Positions 8,885-24,762 of a DNA stretch of 64,000 nt are shown in pieces (position 1 is the first letter of the stretch; the number at the start of each line of letters is the position of its first letter). The position numbers and the translations under genes were made by a program. The notes under the pieces were generated by a model. The model was not told where the DNA came from. It saw nothing but the letters and a program-made list of their open reading frames with translations, and searched no databases. The DNA is from an uncultured Gammaproteobacteria bacterium (GTDB lineage: Bacteria; Pseudomonadota; Gammaproteobacteria; Xanthomonadales; Rhodanobacteraceae): assembly GCA_963804695.1 (NCBI GenBank), contig CAWDRH010000001.1, positions 425,944-489,943 of the forward strand, in the 5' to 3' direction.

Positions 8885-10099
8885 CTACTCAGCGCGTTTC
8901 AGCGCAACGACCGCGTTCAAGCCGCCGAACGCAAACGAATTCGACAGCGCTGCACGCACATTCTTTTCTCGCGCCGTGTTCGGTACGTAATCCAGATCAC
9001 ATTCGGGATCGGCGTCGAGAAAATTCGCAGTCGGCGGGATCACGCCTTCGCACAATGCACCGATCGCGGCGACGAGTTCGATCGCACCGGCGGCACCTAG
9101 CGCGTGTCCGTGCATGGATTTGGTCGAGGACACCGCGAGCGCGTCCGCGTGCGCGCCGAACACGCGGCGGATCGCCTTGGATTCGGTGGGATCATTGGCT
9201 GGCGTACCTGTGCCGTGCGCGTTGATGTAGTCAACGTCCTGCGGTGCGAGTTGCGCATCCGCAAGTGCACTGGCAAGTGCCTTGGCCGCGCCATCGACGG
9301 ATGGCAACACGATATCGCCGGCATCGGCAGACATGCCTGCGCCGGCGAATTCGGCGAGGATGGCCGCTCCACGCTTGCGCGCGTGTTCGTATTCCTCGAG
9401 CACAAAAATCCCGGCGCCTTCGCCGAGCACCATGCCGCGACGCTGCTTGCAGAATGGCCGGCAAGTGTCGTCCGCAGTTACACGTACAGCTTCCCACGCC
9501 TTGACCGTTGGCACTGTGATGCAGGCTTCGCTGCCGCCGGTGACGGCAAAATCCACTTTTCCACTTCTCACCATCTCGAACGCCTGGGCCATCGCGTGAT
9601 TGGCCGAGGCACAAGCGCTGACCACGGCGAACGACGGGCCGGTGATGCCGTATTCCATCGTGACCTGGCAGGCCGGTGCATTCGCCATCAGACGCACGAT
9701 GGTGAGTGGATGCACGCGCGGATTCTTGTCGCCGTAGAAGCGGCGCGATTGTTCGTCGTGCGTATTCTCGCCGCCGATGCCGGTACCGATGATGCAGGCC
9801 GTGCGTTCGCCGTCACCGTTGTCGCGGAAGTTCAGCCCGGATTGTGCCACCGCTTCGCGCGCGGCGATCAGCGCGAACTGCGAAACGCGGTCGAGAAACA
9901 CCAGTTTCTTCGAATCGAAATGTGCGGCCGGATCGTAGCCGCGCACTTCTGCAGCGATCTTGACGTTGAGCAGATCGGTCGGAATATTGGCGATCGGGCC
10001 GATGCCCGAACGTCCTTCGCGCATGGCTTGCCAGGTGGTGCTGGCTGTATGCCCGAGCGCGCTGATTGCGCCCATTCCGGTGATGACTACGCGCCGCAT
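8885..10099 (-). CDS. beta-ketoacyl-ACP synthase (KAS I/II, FabF/NodE-like)
   Basis: Start chosen at MRRVVITGMG. The active-site Cys lies in VSACASANHA, and the His motifs INAHGTGT and SSTKSMHGHALGAAG are present. Confidence 0.9.
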   Translation of the reverse strand: MRRVVITGMGAISALGHTASTTWQAMREGRSGIGPIANIPTDLLNVKIAAEVRGYDPAAHFDSKKLVFLDRVSQFALIAAREAVAQSGLNFRDNGDGERTACIIGTGIGGENTHDEQSRRFYGDKNPRVHPLTIVRLMANAPACQVTMEYGITGPSFAVVSACASANHAMAQAFEMVRSGKVDFAVTGGSEACITVPTVKAWEAVRVTADDTCRPFCKQRRGMVLGEGAGIFVLEEYEHARKRGAAILAEFAGAGMSADAGDIVLPSVDGAAKALASALADAQLAPQDVDYINAHGTGTPANDPTESKAIRRVFGAHADALAVSSTKSMHGHALGAAGAIELVAAIGALCEGVIPPTANFLDADPECDLDYVPNTAREKNVRAALSNSFAFGGLNAVVALKRAE

Positions 10100-10133
10100 G
10101 AGATGACTGGGATGCAAGTGGTCGGTATCGGAA

Positions 10134-10400
10134 TCAGCCCTGCGCGGCGGGAGCCGCAGCCTTTTCTGCCAGCAGTTTGTCGACTGCATCCACCAGACCT
10201 TTGACCGACTCGGTATCGAAATTCGGATCGCGGTCGGGCAGGGTAATCTTGTAGTGATCCTCGATCTCGAAAATGATCTGCACCGCGTCGAGCGACTGGA
10301 TTTCCAGTTCTTTCAGGGTGGAATCGGGAGTGATCTTGGCGATATCGATGCCGGCTTCCTTGGAGATGATGTCAAAAATCGTTTCCTGCACGCTGCTCAT
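10134..10400 (-). CDS. acyl carrier protein
   Basis: 88 aa starting at MSSVQETIFD. The phosphopantetheine attachment Ser lies in LEIQSLDAVQI. The gene sits immediately upstream of the KAS gene. Confidence 0.85.
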   Translation of the reverse strand: MSSVQETIFDIISKEAGIDIAKITPDSTLKELEIQSLDAVQIIFEIEDHYKITLPDRDPNFDTESVKGLVDAVDKLLAEKAAAPAAQG

Positions 10401-10451
10401 TGAGTCTCTCCGCGGTGGGGGTGTCGAAGGCATGGTCATCGGGGCGCTAGA

Positions 10452-16636: not shown

Positions 16637-17724
16637 TCAAAACAGCTTGCCTTGATCCTTTTTCCCCAAATCCACTTTTGCCTTTTTGAACGTGTGGCCG
16701 CCACGTGAAAGGTCGGGGTAACGCGCGCTTTGGCTACCATCGAGCAAACCCGCAATCGTAAGAATCTGGATGCGCGGGAACTCTGTGCCCGTGTCGGGTG
16801 AGCTGTAGAAACCTTCCTTCACCGCCTCGGTCGTCATTGGCTTGCTCGGATCAGCCAGCGTCACGAACAAGCCGATCTCAGCTTTCTCGCGCGCGACCAC
16901 GTGCGCGAGGTCGCGCACCATCGCCACGTTGACGTTGTCGCCGCCCTTCACCGACACCACGATCTTTTTCGCCGCGCCCTTGTCGTCCTGGAAAAAAATC
17001 AGGCCGTCGATGCCGCCGTCGGCGCCTTTCTTCTTGCCCTGATACGGCTGCGCGTTGACCAGCGAACACGCCCACCACTGGAACTGGTACTTGTCGCGCT
17101 CGGCCAGGTTGCGTGCGCCGTCGAGATCTTCCGGCGTGCCGACCACCTCGAACGTCTGCAAGTACCCGGCGCCGCATCGGCAACGCCGACCGTCGCCGTC
17201 TCGTTTTTTCCGCCTTGCTGCGATTCAGATACGGAAAGGCGATCTTTCAAACGCTTCTCGATCAGCGACACCGCCAGATGCGTGATGTCGATACCGATCC
17301 AGCGCCGCCCGAGCTTCTGCGCCGCATCCAATGACTCGCCGTCGGATCGCAGTGCAGATGCAGACTGCCGGTCGGCTTGAGCACGCGATGCAGTTCCAGC
17401 AGACGGTTCGCCATCATCACGAGATACGCCATCATGTCGTTCTCGCCGAGGAACGTGCGCAGCGCGGGCATCAGCTCGGCGACGTCGGTATTCGGCTGGT
17501 GCAGGATTTCGTTGAACTCGCGCTCGGCCTGCTCGCCCCAATGCCAGGAATCCTCGAACGCGGTGATCTGCGCGTCGCGACTCGTGGCCCTTCGGCGTCT
17601 TGAAGAGCAGGTAGTAGTCGCGCTTGGAATTGAACGGCGGATCGAGATAGATCAGGTCGACCGACGCATCCGCGATGTGTTCGTGCAGAATATCGAGGTT
17701 GTCGCCGAAGTAGAGCCGGTTCAC
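16637..17724 (-). pseudogene. degraded DNA methyltransferase (N4/N6, DPPF type) fused to a Mrr-like restriction-endonuclease domain
   Basis: The N-terminus is MNRLYFGDNLDIL..VDLIYLDPPFNS. ..MMAYLVMMANRLLELHRVLKPTGSLHLHCDPTASH then follows in a second frame. An abrupt junction at about 17330 leads to ..AAQKLGRRWIGIDITH, so the middle of the MTase domain is missing. The C-terminal 174-aa part (16637-17161) sits in a third frame and looks like a restriction-endonuclease domain (GGIDGLIFF....KKIVVSVKGG). Overall there are at least 3 frame changes plus an internal deletion. Confidence 0.75.
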
Positions 17725-17878
17725 GACGTCCCCTGGATGCCGATTCGAGAGTTGGTTGAATATCGTGCCCGGCGCTGCTTGTCAACGAGCTTGGGCGTAA
17801 GTGGAGTGGCGGGGACGCTACCACATTTATGCTATAACATATTGTTATTGTTAGTTTTTTATTCGTAGAATTTGGAGT

Positions 17879-17901
17879 GATACCCCCAAAGTTACCCCCG
17901 A
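17879..17901 (+). repeat. GATACCCCC/GTTACCCCC motif pair at the distal island end (possible integrase arm-type sites)
   Basis: GATACCCCCAAAGTTACCCCCGA here compares with GTTACCCCAAACGTTACCCCCGA at 24552-24574, in the same orientation. Confidence 0.5.
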
Positions 17902-17932: not shown

Positions 17933-18343
17933 TTAAACGTCAGCTGGCGAGCTTTCGGGCGGAGGTATCTGAACTTGCGCTATGGGCACTATCCAGATTC
18001 CAACGGAATCATCCATCACAAATTCAAATTTCAAATCGCCAGCGCTAACGATTGGCATTCCGCCAAATCGAGCCGTGAACTTAGTTCTCATTTTGCCTTC
18101 AAAATCGACACTCACCGCTTGGGTGGCCACTTCCAATTCCCCCAAAGTGACTCTGAGTCTTGCGACGACGAGAACAGGGTCGTCTTCGGCACGCTCCAAG
18201 AAGACTATGAATGCAAACGCGGGAATAAATACAGGAAAAGAAACTACGCTCCATCCTTCCACGATTTGAATCAAAGAAACCGTTCGCCGCTCGAAGTCAT
18301 GAATGGCCTGCTCGCAACAAGTGGCAAACAGAACTCTAATCAT
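17933..18343 (-). CDS. hypothetical protein (island cargo ORF D, 136 aa)
   Basis: The ATG lies 4 nt after the stop of ORF C. No motif was recognised. The N-terminal pattern is MIRVLFATCCEQAIHDF....VSLIQIVEG......FP. Confidence 0.55.
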   Translation of the reverse strand: MIRVLFATCCEQAIHDFERRTVSLIQIVEGWSVVSFPVFIPAFAFIVFLERAEDDPVLVVARLRVTLGELEVATQAVSVDFEGKMRTKFTARFGGMPIVSAGDLKFEFVMDDSVGIWIVPIAQVQIPPPESSPADV

Positions 18344-18347
18344 AGTC

Positions 18348-18824
18348 TCATCTGCCGATTTCGATGGTCACACTATTTCGTGCCGATGGGAATGGTGCCT
18401 CCGCGACATTGCTCGGAAGTGCAGACCCCTTTTGCTCGAACGTAAAAATCGTGGGGGAAGCATTTTTGGTTGCAGCAAAGCCAAGCGCGATGAGCGGCCT
18501 AAACCAGGCGAGATTCTCAATCTTCTTTCCCGAGAGAGCCTCAACTACCTCAGATTGTGGACGGAATGATAGGGCAGTCGTATAGGCATAAGCCAACGCT
18601 ACTCCGGTAGGGGTCTTTCGGCTCGAATCAATCTCTTCGACGAGACGAACAAGCTCATCGCTATTTGATCGCTCGGCCAAACCGCGGACAGCTGGGAGTG
18701 CCCTCATCCTGTCGAACAAGTAAGCCGGTGTATTGGCGAACATGTATTCAGGCAGTAATGTGGCCGGGTCCAGTTGGCCGCTACTCTGGCTTGACACGGT
18801 AGTAGACTGCGCGTTGGAAATCAT
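18348..18824 (-). CDS. hypothetical protein (island cargo ORF C)
   Basis: The ORF is open from 18947 but overlaps ORF B. Internal ATGs at 18824 (MISNAQ) and 18743 (MFANTPAY) are plausible starts. No family was recognised. Confidence 0.45.
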   Translation of the reverse strand: MISNAQSTTVSSQSSGQLDPATLLPEYMFANTPAYLFDRMRALPAVRGLAERSNSDELVRLVEEIDSSRKTPTGVALAYAYTTALSFRPQSEVVEALSGKKIENLAWFRPLIALGFAATKNASPTIFTFEQKGSALPSNVAEAPFPSARNSVTIEIGR

Positions 18825-19269
18825 AAGGACACATGGTAGCTCGGTGGGTGGCTTCAAAGTGCAGGCCCCATTTGCTGAGAACAAGCGGAACATTGAGGGA
18901 CTTTGGATCAGGGGGGGCGAGCACAATCGCGGAATGAGAAGGGTCACCGCTCTCTGCCCAATAGATTACTACGTCCCCCGCTTGTACCGTCTCTTGGGGA
19001 ATGATGTCGTATTCATCTTCTTTGAGAATGCGTTTGATCACGTCCGCGTCATATATTGTCGTCCGACGACCGGCAAAGGTCATTCCATGACAGTTGTAGC
19101 GTGCGCAGGATTTGGACCGAAGTCTGAAGTCAATGTGTTTGGTGTACTTGTCGTAGTCGCCACAAATCGCCACGCTTTGCGCCAGCTCAAACTCCGATGC
19201 CCAATCATCGTTTTGCCAATTTGTCAGGTGAACGCCAGTCGAACTGTCTAGCTTGAGTTCTCGCGGCAT
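18781..19269 (-). CDS. putative cytoplasmic papain-fold (NlpC/P60- or CHAP-like) cysteine hydrolase (island cargo ORF B)
   Basis: The motifs appear in order as a Cys motif YNCHGMTF, then GDVVIYW, then a His motif PSHSAIVL about 45-50 aa after the Cys. There is no signal peptide. The start is uncertain (ATG 19269 or GTG 19326). Confidence 0.45.
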   Translation of the reverse strand: MPRELKLDSSTGVHLTNWQNDDWASEFELAQSVAICGDYDKYTKHIDFRLRSKSCARYNCHGMTFAGRRTTIYDADVIKRILKEDEYDIIPQETVQAGDVVIYWAESGDPSHSAIVLAPPDPKSLNVPLVLSKWGLHFEATHRATMCPYDFQRAVYYRVKPE

Positions 19270-19459
19270 CGACTTGGGTTCCGCACGGTTTGGGTTAGGC
19301 TCCACCCTATCTTGGCAGGATAGCACTGAGCTGTTTCTTGCGCGAGCGGGTGGTGCGGTAACGCGGATTGGATCACCCTTTTGGCCGCGGTTCGGACAGC
19401 CAGCAAACCTAAATCCATTGGCTAACTGCTTGTTTGCGCGGCGCGGCCCCGCCGTCCCG

Positions 19460-20605
19460 CTAGAGCCCGATTGTGGCGGGAAGAAACCCGAACTCCGTCA
19501 ACTTAGGCCGCAACTTGTCCCTCAAAGCGTCATGCGCGTCTTTAACTGCCACCAACTCCGTTTTACCAAGGTCGCGCTCTTTCAAGGCGCTTCGTACCTG
19601 CCACCAGCCGGCATCCCAAGTGTCGATCTTGAATTTGCCGGTGCGAAGCTGGTGCAACTCGGCGAAATACGTCCGATATGCAACCTCGCCTGCTTGGAAC
19701 AGCGTAAGGGCTTCGGCTGAAAGTGATCGCGCCATAACCCACACAGCCACGAAGCGTTCTTGAGCTGTGGACAATTGCATCGTGATGTCGCCGTCGCTAA
19801 TGGGTAAACCTCGTATGGCGCGCAGCGGCAGCGGGAAAAAGTGATTCGGCACTTGATAAGTCACGCCCTCGTAGACGACATCCTTCATCGCAACGGTGTG
19901 ATTGCTCTTGTGAAACAGATTCCACACCGTGCAGTCCGTGATGAATTCTTCCGGCAAAGGCGCATTTGGCCGCATGAATTGGTCGCGGTCGTTGTGCCAC
20001 TCGGCTTTGGGTAGTCGCCGAACCGCGTGCACCACCATTGCACGCTCAAAGTTGTCAGGCGTGATGCTGTGACCTCCGGCGCTTGCGTAGGGGCCGGAAT
20101 ACAGGGCAGTAGAATTCGAATGTTGAATATCATTACCAGCACACATAAGCGAACCCAAGAAATTCGCGCTGATGCGATCGCGAATGTCCGGGCCGCTTGT
20201 CTTTATCGAAATCGCCGATGAAAACGGCGGAAAGATCGCTACGCCATCCGGGCGGTCAATCCACTTTGAAAGGAATTGGTCACGATGCACGCTCACCAAG
20301 CGTTTGCGTGCAATCTTTTGCACGCTTGTATCGAAAACGTCCACTTCGATAGCTTGATCTTCTAAGGGTTCGTCATGCGCCAGGTTCCACAGAAGGTGGC
20401 CGACAGGAAAGGGGCTGGCTGCGGACGTACCGTCAAAATTGACGGACGAAAATATGAAGCCGCGTTCAAAGCCGAAGCGAAATACGTTGCCGAGTAGCAA
20501 ATTGAAGCGATCCACTCGCCGTCGCGTGTCCATTGCCATATGCCGGACGTGGATGAGTTCAGGCGCAGCGCGCGATCCCGAATCAGTGCGACAAGATCGA
20601 GACAT
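19460..20605 (-). CDS. hypothetical protein (island cargo ORF A, ~381-395 aa)
   Basis: Long ORF with no recognisable catalytic motif. A second frame (20362-20646, MSRDGWRPHIEG...) overlaps its 5' end and has a better RBS (GGAG 11 nt upstream), so the true start may be 20646 with a frame change. Confidence 0.55.
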   Translation of the reverse strand: MSRSCRTDSGSRAAPELIHVRHMAMDTRRRVDRFNLLLGNVFRFGFERGFIFSSVNFDGTSAASPFPVGHLLWNLAHDEPLEDQAIEVDVFDTSVQKIARKRLVSVHRDQFLSKWIDRPDGVAIFPPFSSAISIKTSGPDIRDRISANFLGSLMCAGNDIQHSNSTALYSGPYASAGGHSITPDNFERAMVVHAVRRLPKAEWHNDRDQFMRPNAPLPEEFITDCTVWNLFHKSNHTVAMKDVVYEGVTYQVPNHFFPLPLRAIRGLPISDGDITMQLSTAQERFVAVWVMARSLSAEALTLFQAGEVAYRTYFAELHQLRTGKFKIDTWDAGWWQVRSALKERDLGKTELVAVKDAHDALRDKLRPKLTEFGFLPATIGL

Positions 20606-20748
20606 CGTGCCCCTTCAATATGTGGACGCCAGCCGTCGCGGCTCATAGTTTATTCGGCTCCAGTCCGCGTCTGCCGTTTTGAATTGCAGCAGAATGCGGT
20701 AAATTTTGTATGAAAAAGAGGGATGACGGATTCCGAGCGGACACGGGT

Positions 20749-20979
20749 TCAGGGCGCGAAAGCCCGCCCCCGTTCGCGCCAATAGGCGGCGGTTGCCAGT
20801 TCCTGTCGGCGATACGCCCAGCGGCGAAAGGGCACTACGTACAGCGTGCAGGCTTGCCCGAAGTTTCCCGCCACGTCGAAACGGCGCACGTCAGGGCTGC
20901 GATTATTCCAGCCCGGTGTGCGGTCAGCGGCGTCCAACGCCCGCAATACGTCATCCGACAATTTCGGTTTCATGGTCAT
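20749..20979 (-). CDS. hypothetical small protein (76 aa)
   Basis: The start overlaps the primase stop (ATGA), which suggests translational coupling. No family was recognised. Confidence 0.4.
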   Translation of the reverse strand: MTMKPKLSDDVLRALDAADRTPGWNNRSPDVRRFDVAGNFGQACTLYVVPFRRWAYRRQELATAAYWRERGRAFAP

Positions 20980-22185
20980 GCGGCCTTTCGTGTTTTCCTG
21001 CGACTGCGGACAAGGGGAACAGCAACAGCGTCTAAAGACTGTATATCTATATAAGGCTGCCGGTTTGTGCAGGTTGCGCTAGCTGCGGATTGTGCAAGTT
21101 GCGACTGGTGCCGGAACCGTTCGGCGATGGTGTATAGCGTGGGAGTGATGCCCTGTTGTGTGTGCATGCCCTTGCGGACAACAATCAAGATTCCAGCCTG
21201 CACAGCGGCGGCGCGGTGACGTAAGAACACGCCTTCATTCCGGAAACCATCGCGAGTATTAAAGTCATCCCAAGTCAGCGCGAACGTGGGGCTATTCCTT
21301 TCGTCGAATCGACGATACGCAACAACGATAATGCATTGCGTCGGCGGCGGTAGCGCCTTCCATTCTGCCGAATCCTGCAGCTTGTGCGGCAGAATCGTGA
21401 ACCCGTCCGAACCATAGCCGCTAGCACTCGCCGAGATGGTATCTACTTCGGTTGCGCACAACGGCGGCTTGCAGCGCTCAGCGTTAATGCGCTGCAGACG
21501 ATCAATCACCGCAGGCGCGTCGAAGCCCTTGCGCACCAGTCCCGCAGCGAGACTAAACAGCGTCGAATTGCGCTCGCCTTCGGGTATCACGTCCGGCAGT
21601 GCGCGTTTCGTCTTGGGTTGCGCGGTTGCGGGTCGCAGGTTGAAACCCTGCACTAGCTCGGCGACGGTGTACGGCACGCGTTCACACAGTGCGACAACGT
21701 GCGACAGGAACGGCTCGCGCTCTTCGGTGCTCGAATCCCGGCAGGCGCATGACGCGGGAAAGGTCTTTCACCACGCCGTCACCATTGAAGCGTGCGGCGA
21801 GTGCCGATTGCAGCGGCGTGAATTGATCTAGCCGACAATCGGAAACAAGCCAGTACACATGCCAGCGGCCCGGCGATGATTCCACGATGCAATGCGCCGG
21901 CAGCGGCGCGGTTTGCACGGGTTCCAGCGGTGCGCCGTCAAGGTCAATGAAGAGTGCTCGCACGCGCTGCACGTTCGTTGCCTTGCGGCCCTTGCCGTCG
22001 CCTTCGTTGACCATGACAAACACGCCCGCGCCGCGCGCGTTCAATCCTGCAAGCGTTTCGGCGTGTTCGGCCAGTGTTCCGTGCAGGGTGCGCGTCAATC
22101 GCGGTTTGCCCTTCGCGCCGCCCTCTCCGAAGGTCAGGAACGTGTGCCGCATGCCCAGCAGCGTCAGGAATCGCGCCGCACTCAT
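20976..22185 (-). pseudogene. Prim-Pol type DNA primase with PriCT-1 domain, split by a frameshift near 21726
   Basis: The N-terminal part (21682-22185) reads ..VFVMVNEGDGKGRKATNVQRVRALFIDLDG..HCIVESSPGRWHVYWLV..RVMRLPGFEH. The next frame continues EEREPFLSHVVALCERVPYTVAEL.. and contains IPEGERNSTLFSLAAGLVRKG (PriCT-1-like). Confidence 0.75.
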
Positions 22186-22246
22186 GCGATGGCAGCACTG
22201 ATATGATCGGTGGTTTCCGCGAGCCGGTGGCGGTAGGCGTCGGGGT

Positions 22247-22456
22247 TCATGCCGCATCCTTTCCAGCATCGCCTGAAATGAATGCTGCTAAGTCGGCGCG
22301 GTGATAACGCACGAGGCGTAGACCAATCTTGCGATAGCGCGGGCCTTCGCCACGCCAGCGCCAGTTGCGCAGCGTTTGAACGCATGCACCAAGGATTGCG
22401 GCCGCTTCGTTTTCGTCAACGAGGTCGCCTGGGAGAAGCGGGGTGTCAAAGTTCAT
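22247..22456 (-). CDS. alpA: AlpA-family helix-turn-helix regulator/excisionase-like protein
   Basis: 69 aa. The segment LVDENEAAAILGACVQTLRNWRWRGEGPRYRKIGLRLVRYHRADLAAFI fits the AlpA/MerR-like HTH pattern. The gene lies between the integrase and the primase. Confidence 0.75.
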   Translation of the reverse strand: MNFDTPLLPGDLVDENEAAAILGACVQTLRNWRWRGEGPRYRKIGLRLVRYHRADLAAFISGDAGKDAA

Positions 22457-22538
22457 CGCAAGTCTCTCGCGGAAATTGAGGGATGCTGCGACGAAAAATA
22501 ATCTCTGTCTTTGCTATTTACGAGGAATAAAAAGGCCG

Positions 22539-23033
22539 TTATTTTTCCGGCGTTACCAAGGGCAAAAACTTTCGGCTTCGGAAGATTCGCAGAATGCTTT
22601 CAGGTTCCAGCTTGCCTCCAAACTGTGCCGACACCGCTTCGGCTGCTTGGGTTCGGCTAACTCCTTTGCTTATCAGACCGTCGAAAATCCATCGCATAGC
22701 CATGCGCTCAAACCGCGCGCCATTCCGCTTGGCGTAGTTACCTGACTTTTGCCGACTGTTCCCAAAAAAAGCTTGCTCCAAACTTATATGTCCGTAGCCT
22801 GCTTGATAGGTGTCCCAGCAGTCGTGAAGTGCCAGTAGGAGTTCCGGCGGAGGGTAAAACCCCATATCGATGAAATAGAAAAGCGTCGAAAGGGGTGAAT
22901 TGGAGACGTGCCTTAGTTTCTCACCGCGCTCAATAGTCTTCTTGCCGTAGAGATCGTAGATCGGCTCAAGCGTATTCCACGCCGCATTCATCCCTTCTAA
23001 GACAGGGGTACTCTCTAACTTGATCGTCATCAA
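22539..23033 (-). CDS. hypothetical protein (164 aa), island-borne
   Basis: ORF with lower GC than the backbone, located between alpA and int. No motif was recognised. Confidence 0.5.
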   Translation of the reverse strand: MMTIKLESTPVLEGMNAAWNTLEPIYDLYGKKTIERGEKLRHVSNSPLSTLFYFIDMGFYPPPELLLALHDCWDTYQAGYGHISLEQAFFGNSRQKSGNYAKRNGARFERMAMRWIFDGLISKGVSRTQAAEAVSAQFGGKLEPESILRIFRSRKFLPLVTPEK

Positions 23034-23255
23034 GAAATGCGTGCCAATCTACGACTTGTTTCCATTGTTCAGCGACGGAAAAAGGTCGGGGCAATCCATT
23101 TTTTCCAATCCTGTCCATCCGGACAGTAGCTGGATGGCGTTGTTTCTGATTGTTGAGCATGCGCGCACCTTCCAGCGCCCTTCAAAGAATCGCCACGGCA
23201 ACGCGGTGAAGGAGTCCGTGCGTTCGGCTGGCCGGCCTAGCCGTGGCGGTTTCGA

Positions 23256-24499
23256 TTATCCAGCTCTGCGCTTGATAGCGACTACTTTTCCGGGTGATTC
23301 GCGCAGGCTATCCAGATAGTCAGCCCAAGCCTGCATCATCTTGCGCCGTTCCGGCAGGTGTTCGGCGTAGTTGTAGGCAGCACGTACCGCGTCGCGCTCG
23401 GCGTGCGCGCAAGCCGCCGCTCGATGGCATCACGGTGCCATCCCTGTTCGTTTAGCAGCGTGCTCGCCATGCTGCGGAAGCCGTGGCCTGTCATGTCGTC
23501 GCTCATGTATGCCCAAGACGCCGCAGCGCCGCAGTTGACGGTGTTCTCGCTCATTGGCCGTTCGCGTGTGCGCACGCTCGGGAACAACAATCTGCCTTTG
23601 CCGCTCAGCGTGAGCGAACTCTTGCAAGACCGCCAATAGCTTGACGCGACAGCGGCACGATATGCAAGGCGTGCGCATCTTCATGCGCTCGGCGGGTATC
23701 CGCCACTCGGCCTTGTCCAGATTGAACTCAGCCGATTGAGCCGTGCGCAGTTCGCCCGGTCGCACGAATGCCAGTGGTGTCGAGCTTCAACGCGGCTGCG
23801 GGTCGACGAAGTATACCTGTGTATCCCTCAATCGCACGCAACAGTTCACCTATGCGGTCCGGATCAGTGATTGATACGCGAAGAATGTTCGCTTTTCGAC
23901 TGGCGGAATCGCGCCGCGCAGGTCGCCGCATGGGTCACGCTCAGCGCAGCCTGTTGCGACGGCATAGCGGAACACTTGGCTCCGCAGTTCTGGTGTGCAC
24001 GATGCGCGGTTTCTAACCGCGCCGCGTGATTCGATTCGGCGAAGCATTGTCAAGATTTCCGGTGCCGTCAGTTCCCCCGATCGCGCGCGAACCGATCCAC
24101 GGTGAATACATCGCGTTCCAGTCGGCGGATGATCTTGTCGGCATGCCCCTTCGCCCACTTTGGGGGAGAATTTTGCAAACCATTCCACGCGCCATCAGCT
24201 TCAAACGTGTCGGCTGTCCGCGGCCCGCTCAGCCTTGCAGCTTAGTGCCGGGGTCTATACCATCCGCCAGCAGCTTACGCGCCTCGTCGCGGCGCTCACG
24301 CGCTTGTCGGAGCGATACATCGGGGAACGTGCCGAGTGATAGCAAGTTTTCCTTGCGCGTGTCGGGGCGGCGATATTTCATTCGCGAATACTTGGCGCCG
24401 GTCGGTTGTACCAGCACGAACATGCCGCGTTCGTCAGTCAGCTTTGTACGGCTTCGCTTTTGGCTTCGCGTTTTGAACTGCGGAAGGGGTTAGGGACAT
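23256..24499 (-). pseudogene. int: P4-type tyrosine integrase, heavily frameshifted
   Basis: Fragments lie in all three minus frames: MSLTPSAVQNAKPKAKPYK; MFVLVQPTGAKY..SLRQARERRDEARKLLADGIDP; ELTAPEILTMLRRIESRGAV; QVFRYAVATGCAERDP; RPGELRTAQ..EFNLDKAEWRIPAERMKMR; FPSVRTRERPMSENTVN; MTGHGFRSMASTLLNEQGWHRDAIE; and the end ..MMQAWADYLDSLRESPGKVVAIKRRAG. By eye there are at least 6 frame changes. Confidence 0.85.
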
Positions 24500-24501
24500 T
24501 T

Positions 24502-24587
24502 GGGGGTAAACTCTCGTCAACCGTGGGGGTATCGACTTCGAGCGATGGTGCGTTACCCCAAACGTTACCCCCGAAATTGGGGGTAAC
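24502..24587. repeat. cluster of five GGGGGTA(A/T)C motifs between int and tRNA-Phe, including the palindrome GTTACCCCC-GAAATT-GGGGGTAAC (24564-24587)
   Basis: Motifs occur at 24502, 24525 (GGGGGTATC), 24552 (reverse orientation, 4 C), 24564 (reverse orientation) and 24579. Confidence 0.6.
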
Positions 24588-24686
24588 GCAAGTGAATCGA
24601 GAGACATTGCAGGTATGGGGTTACCACGGGAAAGCCCTGTATAGCGTGCTTTCAGGGGTGTCCGGGGATGTAGCGGGAGGGAAATG

Positions 24687-24762
24687 TGGTGGCCGGGGAC
24701 GGAATCGAACCGCCGACACGGGGATTTTCAATCCCCTGCTCTACCAACTGAGCTACCCGGCC
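24687..24762 (-). tRNA. tRNA-Phe (anticodon GAA)
   Basis: The reverse complement GGCCGGGTAGCTCAGTTGGTAGAGCAGGGGATTGAAAATCCCCGTGTCGGCGGTTCGATTCCGTCCCCGGCCACCA folds as a cloverleaf. It has a 7-bp acceptor stem, the loop CT-GAA-AA in a GGGGA/TCCCC stem, a TTCGATT T-loop and an encoded CCA. It is near-identical in pattern to E. coli tRNA-Phe. Confidence 0.97.

Follow-up and report, generated by a model that had tools for sequence, protein, structure and literature searches.

A mobile three-gene cassette with a predicted cytoplasmic NlpC/P60-CHAP-type hydrolase at the distal end of a tRNA-Phe island: a candidate toxin-type conflict module

Introduction

What is carried at the far end of a small island integrated at a tRNA-Phe gene in a Rhodanobacteraceae genome, and what might this cargo do for its carrier? 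The stretch of DNA analyzed here, called the window in what follows, comprises 64,000 nucleotides of an uncultured gammaproteobacterium (assembly GCA_963804695.1, contig CAWDRH010000001.1, positions 425,944 to 489,943). It contains an island of 6.9 kb (17.80–24.69 kb) integrated at tRNA-Phe, in which the last genes before the distal boundary are four open reading frames (ORFs), A to D, all of them on the minus strand. A previous sequence-only reading of this DNA took them for one four-gene operon, and proposed it as a candidate defense or toxin module that matches no named system. The comparison with other genomes leads to a different unit, formed by B, C and D, in which B is predicted to be a cytoplasmic hydrolase of the NlpC/P60-CHAP type. 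We think that this cassette may be a toxin-type conflict module.

The four ORFs were found at the coordinates given by the sequence-only reading:

ORF A, 19460–20605, minus strand, 381 amino acids: 5'-truncated remnant of a gene family of 550–600 amino acids, unrelated to the cassette
Gene B, 18781–19269, minus strand, 162 amino acids from the ATG: predicted cytoplasmic papain-like Cys-His-His hydrolase of the NlpC/P60-CHAP type, first gene of the cassette
Gene C, 18348–18824, minus strand, 158 amino acids: predicted helical orphan, fast-evolving middle gene of the cassette
Gene D, 17933–18343, minus strand, 136 amino acids: divergent DUF6941-family protein, last gene of the cassette

The tight junctions that had been claimed were confirmed by measurement, with an overlap of 44 nt between B and C and a gap of 4 nt between C and D; A and B are separated by 190 nt. 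The claimed low-GC stretch is also there, with a GC content of 0.52–0.55 across 17.5–20.5 kb versus 0.60–0.65 in the flanks. The longest ORF of B opens at a GTG at 19326 and the ATG is found at 19269. Moreover, B, C and D are each present as called genes in a public protein collection. The alternative start of A at 20646 was discarded, since it lies in another frame (1187 nt) and begins an independent ORF of 94 amino acids. A promoter and terminator scan of 17.7–20.9 kb remained below the shuffle expectation and was uninformative, and no RNA element was detected beside B-C-D in an Rfam scan.

The B-C-D Cassette in Other Genomes

A word-indexed search returned only nine homologues of B, and on their contigs B is followed by proteins of ~145 and ~135 amino acids with overlapping junctions. 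A much larger set was obtained with a pattern scan ([YF]NCHG[LM]TF) over one genome per species in 185,579 species, which gave 90 confirmed B loci, 80 of them analyzed further. Hidden Markov models of C and D were seeded from three sequences and iterated over all the ORFs of the fetched loci. Among 86 B-bearing sources, D is present in 83 and C in 74, and the order is always B>C>D on one strand. The hosts belong to Acidobacteriota, Planctomycetota, Verrucomicrobiota, Alpha-, Beta- and Gammaproteobacteria, Desulfobacterota, Bacteroidota, Ignavibacteriota, Nitrospirota, Chloroflexota, Armatimonadota, Omnitrophota, Actinomycetota, Saccharibacteria and others, about 20 phyla in all. In independent gene calls the B-C-D junctions are overlaps or gaps of 1–11 nt, with the 44-nt B/C overlap in the closest pair, and no conserved fourth gene was found around the B-C-D loci. 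An exhaustive profile search gave 3,076 clusters (50% identity level) for the B family at E ≤ 1e-3 and 303 at E ≤ 1e-30; a concatenated C+D query had no match in an index of 5.8 billion proteins.

The closest relative, locus L004, gives the sharpest view of the limits of the unit. Its amino-acid identity with the window is 78, 70 and 67% for B, C and D, respectively, and the nucleotide similarity starts exactly at the ATG of B (19269) and stops at 17973, in the end of D, the flanks being dissimilar. The dN/dS ratio between both is ~0.09 for B and C, with saturated dS, which corresponds to purifying selection. As judged from these sequence comparisons, B-C-D is a three-gene, translationally coupled unit that moves between genomes as one block.

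The cassette also decays. Split, truncated or fused versions were seen in about 10 loci, and one alphaproteobacterial metagenome-assembled genome (MAG) has two copies on different contigs (L052 and L088), one of them disrupted. The sole B-D fusion, considered as a possible "Rosetta stone" case, was discarded as a deletion pseudogene without C: at L067 (9815–10549) C has been lost in the deletion, and B, retained up to SKWG..HEV, is joined to the C-terminal half of D.

ORF A Is Not Part of the Cassette

The large protein index contains 221 homologues of A with a modal length of 550–600 amino acids, to which A aligns across ~88% of its own length. When compared by tblastn with the 594-amino-acid Methylibium protein P0006, the window encodes only its residues 258–593 (20485–19481, 66% identity), and no part of the 64 kb encodes the 257 N-terminal residues. 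A is truncated likewise in a second assembly of the island (L092, described below), while two other genomes have the full coding capacity of the family.

That A-B-C-D are one operon or system is suggested by their co-directional and adjacent arrangement within the low-GC cargo region. Against this, A keeps only that C-terminal part of a family of ~590 amino acids, it is set apart from B by the 190-nt gap, and the homology of L004 begins at the ATG of B. In addition, no homologue of A lies within 10 kb of B-C-D in 92 loci, and neither B, C nor D was found beside the homologues of A in the genomes examined. Thus, the co-occurrence in other genomes that had been proposed as a check of the four-gene operon is found for B, C and D (~80 independent loci) and fails for A. 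Since A is truncated and does not co-occur with the others in either direction, it was rejected as a component and the unit has three genes instead of four; we regard the four-gene model as hardly tenable. By its sequence, A is a dead-end 3' fragment of an unrelated gene that shares the cargo slot.

The family to which A belongs deserves some attention on its own. The full-length proteins are present in many phyla and have a large conserved C-terminal domain, and 57 full-length homologues conserve F49/T51/P52 (FxTP), D81-M-A-A-G-T-G-N-L89 and an invariant N178-P-P180 (NPPF). These motifs resemble motifs X, I and IV of gamma-class N6-adenine methyltransferases, and the family may be one of unannotated methyltransferases; Pfam, NCBIfam, PADLOC and PDB sequence/profile searches with the full-length family gave no match. 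The methyltransferase-like motif region is entirely missing from A in the window. In three loci (L001–L003) the neighbors of A homologues include PIN/Phd and ParE/Phd toxin-antitoxin (TA) pairs, HipA and a NERD-domain gene.

The Proteins of the Cassette

Protein B. All 74 genome-derived and 115 database-derived sequences of B retain Cys60, His112 and His142, and N59, H61, G62, T64, F65, R68, R69, D99 and S132-K133-W134-G135 are invariant or nearly so. The protein also carries a "GD(V/I)(V/I)xY ... HS(A/G)IV" motif, and these residues agree with the NlpC/P60-CHAP order read previously from the sequence. A first structural model, based on nine sequences, was poor (pLDDT 68). The AlphaFold2 model obtained with a multiple sequence alignment of 115 sequences has a pLDDT of 94.6 and a pTM of 0.89. 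In this model Cys60 starts helix 60–66, His112 is placed in strand 110–118 and His142 in strand 139–143, and such predicted layout is the canonical, non-permuted NlpC/P60 arrangement. The Foldseek comparison of the predicted structure, also suggested beforehand, gave top matches that are nearly all CHAP or NlpC-P60 proteins. Those in the PDB are the phi812 CHAP domain, Ly7917 CHAP, Spr/MepS, an S. aureus amidase, PlyGRCS and LytE, and those in BFVD are CHAP/NlpC-P60 proteins including phage CHAP lysins, with probability up to 1.00.

At the level of profiles, Pfam models were matched by some of the 74 relatives of B: DUF7689 by 16 (best E = 6.2e-10), NLPC_P60 by 10 (1.7e-3), CHAP by 9 (3.2e-5), DUF1287 by 9 and Amidase_6 by 4. 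PDB sequence/profile and single-sequence searches found nothing for B, and PADLOC applied to 74 homologues found nothing beyond one chance match to AbiEi. The invariant Cys-His-His residues, the layout of the model and the fold lists dominated by CHAP/NlpC-P60 proteins support the fold call made from the sequence alone, with moderate statistics, and B is thus predicted to be a divergent soluble cysteine hydrolase of the NlpC/P60-CHAP type.

What B shares with the NlpC/P60 and CHAP families (PF00877 and PF05257; the closest one is DUF7689, PF24738) is the Cys at the N-terminus of a helix, the His ~52 residues further on in a beta-strand and a third His. It differs from those families by the position of the third catalytic residue, 30 residues past the His, by a conserved N-terminal extension of 50 residues, by the lack of a signal peptide, a cell-wall-binding domain or a toxin-delivery domain, and by being always encoded with C and D. 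The absence of a signal peptide, noted before, stands, and neither transmembrane (TM) nor hydrophobic segments were detected in B. The longer database entries of B contain only spurious Arg-rich upstream translations, not delivery domains. Several Arg and Lys residues close to the catalytic motif are conserved, R57 among the close relatives and R68, R69 and K133 over the wider family, which suggests an acidic amide substrate. One might speculate that this substrate is a cytoplasmic, probably carboxylate-bearing amide, such as the stem peptides of peptidoglycan precursors.

Protein C. Homologues of C are found between B and D in 74 loci. They have a predicted helical domain of ~110 residues with an N-terminal ANTPxYL motif, followed by a variable tail rich in Ser, Thr and Pro; N31, T32, P33 and W107 are invariant or nearly so. 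C has the lowest mean column identity of the cassette, 19%, compared with 23% for D and 26–30% for B. In about 10 loci the C profile fails, yet the slot holds a helical ORF of 115–216 amino acids. No TM segment was predicted in C, and no Pfam, NCBIfam, PADLOC or meaningful PDB match was found for it; its match to the helical domain of an aminopeptidase (E = 0.0027) was dismissed as an artifact of helical repeats. The sequence-only reading had been unable to place C and D in any family, which holds for C but not for D.

Protein D. The D protein of the window matches the Pfam model DUF6941 (PF22091) over positions 2–115 of 125, with 18.4 bits (E = 0.0029) for a gathering cutoff of 27 bits. It remains below the threshold, but 64 of 67 relatives match the model at E ≤ 0.01 (best 1.4e-11) along nearly the whole profile. 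Therefore, D of the window is, by profile comparison, a divergent DUF6941 relative and not a threshold-passing member. DUF6941 is a family without known function that was not found in the literature searched. The comparison of D with PADLOC gave only a chance-level match to BrxHI (E = 0.033), and nothing meaningful came out of PDB sequence/profile searches with D.

Residues 31–49 of D (~18197–18253) form a hydrophobic stretch with a Kyte-Doolittle value of 2.18, conserved as FPxxxP...ER, and in 27 of 67 homologues its hydropathy is at least 1.6, the usual TM threshold. Many abortive-infection effectors are small membrane proteins. Taking both things into account, D could itself be the effector, as a small membrane-inserting protein; in that case the role of B, as protease or amidase, would be to activate or process D, and C would be a regulator. 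Within the stretch, Pro37 is invariant, another Pro is conserved and many members have charged or Gly residues, for which a buried beta-hairpin fits better, and the family median hydropathy is under the TM threshold. We consider D as effector quite improbable.

Mobility and Genomic Context of the Cassette

The cassette is associated with tRNA genes beyond what is expected. A tRNA or tmRNA gene is located within 700 nt of it in 13 of 79 loci, compared to 3.6 expected from the local tRNA density (P = 3e-5), and the 3' end of the tRNA faces the cassette in 10 of those 13. In five loci, long exact att repeats enclose the cassette in islands of 5.7–18 kb:

L027, Chthoniobacter flavus: att of 26 nt, 5.7-kb island, D ending 172 nt from the distal att
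L048, Collimonas: att of 45 nt, 6.35 kb, integrase beside tRNA-Met and B-C-D last
L050: att of 50 nt, 8.5 kb
L033, Mesorhizobium: att of 46 nt, 17.8 kb
L058: att of 44 nt, 13.8 kb

These islands indicate that the position of the cassette in the window, opposite the integrase and by the far att, is repeated elsewhere. As a separate observation, the closest tRNA to the cassette in several unrelated MAGs (L050, L058, L080, L016, L018 and L019) is tRNA-Thr(CGT), at which the carrier islands may integrate preferentially. Response regulators (13 loci) are the commonest neighbors within 7 kb, followed by Ser/Thr kinases (8), tyrosine integrases (6) and IS1595 transposases (4). Most of the hosts are Acidobacteriota, Planctomycetota and Verrucomicrobiota from soil and water.

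This context bears on a benign explanation, in which B-C-D would be an accessory enzyme complex: a cytoplasmic amidase or peptidase that recycles or degrades a peptide, a gamma-glutamyl compound or one derived from the cell wall, whose subunits C and D would bind the substrate or serve as scaffold, the whole being carried as a niche-adaptive island trait. Cytoplasmic housekeeping amidases do exist in the NlpC/P60-CHAP superfamily, such as the CHAP amidase domain of glutathionylspermidine synthetase/amidase. The heterogeneous neighbors, which include ordinary metabolic genes and no known defense genes, the mostly soil and aquatic hosts and the strong purifying selection would also be in line with such a complex. 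Less easily accommodated are the lack of a linked transporter, regulator or pathway gene, the very patchy distribution (~90 hits in 185,579 species) of a cassette that is itself the transfer unit, its enrichment at tRNA and tmRNA sites as near-sole cargo of tiny att-flanked islands, the frequent disruption of copies, and a middle gene that evolves or is replaced far faster than its partners. In our opinion, a benign complex is unlikely. The mobility of the cassette, the absence of fixed neighbors, its being often the sole cargo of tiny islands, its occasional decay, the purifying selection and the intact Cys-His-His residues fit better a selfish or defensive toxin-type module than a metabolic trait.

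The tRNA-Phe Island

The position of the cargo at the integrase-distal end of an int-alpA-primase island at tRNA-Phe, as it had been read from the sequence, was confirmed with ARAGORN, Pfam, att alignment and Rfam. In order from the integration site, the features besides A to D are:

tRNA-Phe (GAA), 24687–24762, minus strand: integration site and right boundary of the island (ARAGORN; Rfam tRNA, 70.7 bits)
GTTACCCCC copies, 24564–24572 (plus strand), 24579–24587 (minus strand) and 17891–17899: at both island ends only
Integrase gene, 23336–24600, minus strand: ORF fragments over several frames; the counterpart in L092 has Arm-DNA-bind_3
int-alpA RNA motif (Rfam RF02996), 23178–23247, minus strand: 48.1 bits versus a gathering score of 35.8, E = 1e-7
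orf164 (164 amino acids), 22539–23033, minus strand: between int and alpA, no family match
Gene of an AlpA-like HTH_17 regulator/excisionase, 22247–22456, minus strand: Pfam HTH_17, E = 3.1e-11
Primase gene, 20976–22269, minus strand: RepB_primase N-terminal domain plus PriCT_1 (Pfam, PHROGs), two ORFs in the window
ORF of 76 amino acids, 20749–20979, minus strand: overlaps the primase stop by 4 nt, no family match
Distal att-like degenerate repeat CGTCCCCGCCACTCCAC, 17801–17817, minus strand: left boundary of the island (local alignment to the tRNA-Phe 3' end)

The order is therefore integrase, int-alpA RNA, orf164, alpA, primase, the coupled 76-amino-acid ORF, the remnant of A and B-C-D. That the island is of the int-alpA type is confirmed by the RNA motif, which lies between what remains of the integrase and orf164/alpA. 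A degenerate copy of the tRNA-Phe 3' end, CGTCCCCGGCCACCAC (24701–24686), is found as CGTCCCCGCCACTCCAC at 17817–17801, ~115 nt past the stop of D. The sequence GTTACCCCC has three copies in the 64-kb window, one at 17891 and an inverted pair at 24564/24579, for 0.12 expected, and these copies are candidate arm-type binding sites of the integrase or excisionase. There is also an imperfect direct repeat of 29 nt at 17873–17901 and 24546–24574.

The second assembly, L092, is an independent metagenome contig of 6,882 bp that matches the window end to end from 24686 to 17809, so the 6.9-kb stretch behaves as a discrete unit; L092 may represent the excised island in circular form or a unit of the assembly graph. 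B, C, D and the tail are identical in both assemblies. The other parts differ by 23 indels, mostly of 1 nt, that create or remove frameshifts (20000–24300; for example 21722, 21258, 20580, 20330 and 20052). The primase is a single ORF of 361 amino acids in L092 and is split in the window, and A is contiguous in the window and split in L092. As these 1-nt indels are specific to each assembly, many of the apparent frameshifts and pseudogenes are probably long-read assembly errors, and a first reading of the island as heavily pseudogenized was abandoned after this comparison. The integrase is fragmented in both assemblies, and its region differs by 14.9% between them, the remainder of the island being nearly identical, which suggests swapping of the integrase module or collapsed paralogues.

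Two observations concern the surroundings of the island. Just outside the distal att, at 16637–17724 on the minus strand, there is a frameshifted N6_N4 DNA methyltransferase fused to an Mrr_cat restriction-endonuclease domain, which may be a type IIG-like restriction-modification gene or what is left of an earlier insertion at this site. Farther into the chromosomal flank, at 8885–10439 on the minus strand, a beta-ketoacyl synthase, whose cluster is named "nodulation protein E" by one source, is followed by an acyl-carrier-protein-like ORF, both unrelated to the cassette.

Comparison with Known Systems

Minimal int-alpA-prim satellites are reported to have a defense hotspot in the slot that follows the primase (PMC10803314), and P4-like satellites provide a related case (PMC9122126). 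In PICMI, the slot after prim carries restriction-modification systems, retrons, DRT, PARIS and a novel single-gene defense (PMC10803314). The island of the window resembles PICMI in its small size (6.9 kb) and in its order of int, contiguous gene, alpA, primase and accessory genes by the distal att; orf164 occupies the position of the PICMI "iolg/icg" genes. It differs from them in being integrated at tRNA-Phe and not at fis, in its RepB_primase plus PriCT_1 primase instead of one of the DUF3987/DUF5906 type, in a host outside the Vibrionaceae, in an integrase that is fragmented in both assemblies, and in having no known helper phage. On sequence grounds the island is of a different family with the same gene order as PICMI, and it does not match the model by which PICMI are defined. 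Unlike P4-like satellites, it lacks psu, sid and delta genes.

With respect to its content, a run of PADLOC-DB v2.0.0 on A to D of the window, on the homologues of C and D and on the full-length homologues of A detected no system, in agreement with the claim that the genes match no named defense system. The curated models of Pfam, NCBIfam, PADLOC and PHROGs contain no named system for B, C or D, and literature searches on DUF6941, DUF7689 and NlpC with phage defense found no description of the cassette. What was known already is the superfamily of B and the occurrence of a small mobile conflict cassette in the cargo slot of a satellite or island; the cassette itself is unnamed in the curated libraries and in the literature searched.

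Two kinds of toxin system offer the closest likeness. Tripartite TA modules include TAC, formed by toxin, antitoxin and a SecB-like chaperone, omega-epsilon-zeta and PasABC. B-C-D similarly has three coupled and mobile genes: the first encodes an enzyme, the second a rapidly evolving partner whose tail is disordered, and the third a conserved protein. The TAC order of toxin, antitoxin and third component is the order of B-C-D as we read it. The Zeta toxins give a precedent for a TA toxin acting on a peptidoglycan precursor. In contrast with those modules, B-C-D has no sequence or profile similarity to TA families, and D is not SecB-like by the tests applied. The second kind are the papain-like toxins among polymorphic and type VI secretion system (T6SS) effectors, such as the Tae amidases, which B resembles in its papain-fold Cys-His residues beside small fast-evolving genes. 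One entry of this kind, PDB 9l5u_B ("papain-like cysteine protease toxin/immunity pair"), was among the weak structural matches of the first, poor model of B. Different from them, B has no PAAR, LXG, RHS or MIX domain and belongs to a set of three genes, not a pair; no T6SS, T7SS or CDI genes were found near B-C-D in the loci surveyed.

A Conflict Module?

Our preferred interpretation, to which we give close to an even chance, is that B-C-D works on its own as a toxin-type conflict module and serves island addiction and/or phage defense. Anti-phage defense proper seems to us somewhat unlikely. In its most explicit form, the proposal is that of an undescribed tripartite anti-phage system of the abortive-infection type, whose effector would be a cytoplasmic NlpC/P60-CHAP hydrolase acting on an intracellular amide substrate, for example peptidoglycan-precursor peptides. 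The system would be common among phyla of soil and water, and it would be the chief cargo carried by minimal tRNA-integrated islands of the int-alpA-primase type. Such a detailed version must be considered tentative, and unlikely to hold in all its parts. In the preferred interpretation, B would be the effector amidase or peptidase on a cytoplasmic substrate, and C, the fastest-evolving and sometimes replaced component, would restrain B as an antitoxin or immunity-like inhibitor. For D, the role of a conserved adaptor, chaperone or sensor is proposed. Once released, B would arrest or kill the cell, and this in turn would stabilize the carrier island through addiction and/or abort a phage infection. 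We also count for a conflict role that the cargo slot holds the remnant of A, whose homologues sit among TA genes and a NERD-domain gene.

Several results weigh against this interpretation. No PADLOC, Pfam or NCBIfam model ties B, C or D to a known defense or TA system, and C and D have no type II antitoxin DNA-binding domain detectable with Pfam and NCBIfam, the C family not having been scanned member by member. The 150 immediate neighbors in 75 genomes include no recurrent known defense family. Regarding B, the support for its fold is statistically weak, the best Foldseek E value being 2e-3 (range 2e-3 to 2e-2) with TM-scores of 0.3–0.44, and the protein of the window matches no Pfam model at E ≤ 0.1. 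The hydrophobic stretch of D might be inserted in the membrane, which would alter the proposed model. Finally, B is absent from 72,556 plasmids and from 50,697 phage genomes (the latter by tblastn), and is present in only 2 of 2.9 million viral contigs.

The last counts also bear on another explanation, namely that the cassette is the remnant of a phage lysis or morphogenesis cassette, with B as a CHAP/NlpC-P60 endolysin or tail lysin and C and D as accessory proteins. The best structural neighbors of B are indeed phage CHAP/NlpC-P60 lysins, two copies of B-C-D are on predicted viral contigs, and 1 of the 150 neighbors is a phage portal protein. Nevertheless, besides the zero matches in phage genomes and the two viral contigs, B has neither a cell-wall-binding domain nor a secretion signal, C has no TM segment like those of holins or spanins, the neighbors are not phage structural genes, and PHROGs gave no match. 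A lysis remnant is therefore very improbable in our view, and a phage or plasmid origin of the cassette was rejected on the basis of the same collections.

Conclusions and Outlook

If B-C-D is a conflict module, it would introduce a new effector logic, with a cytoplasmic NlpC/P60-type hydrolase under the control of two partners. It would also give functions to the orphan families DUF6941 and C which, together with B, amount to thousands of sequence clusters in under-studied phyla. Moreover, the "cargo after the primase" slot of PICMI and P4-like satellites would then be shared by tiny tRNA-integrated islands beyond enterobacteria and vibrios. The cassette measures only 1.34 kb (19269–17933) and is self-contained, which makes it experimentally tractable. 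If it were instead a benign enzyme complex, B-C-D would still be a well-defined and widely conserved unknown, worth a look by structural genomics.

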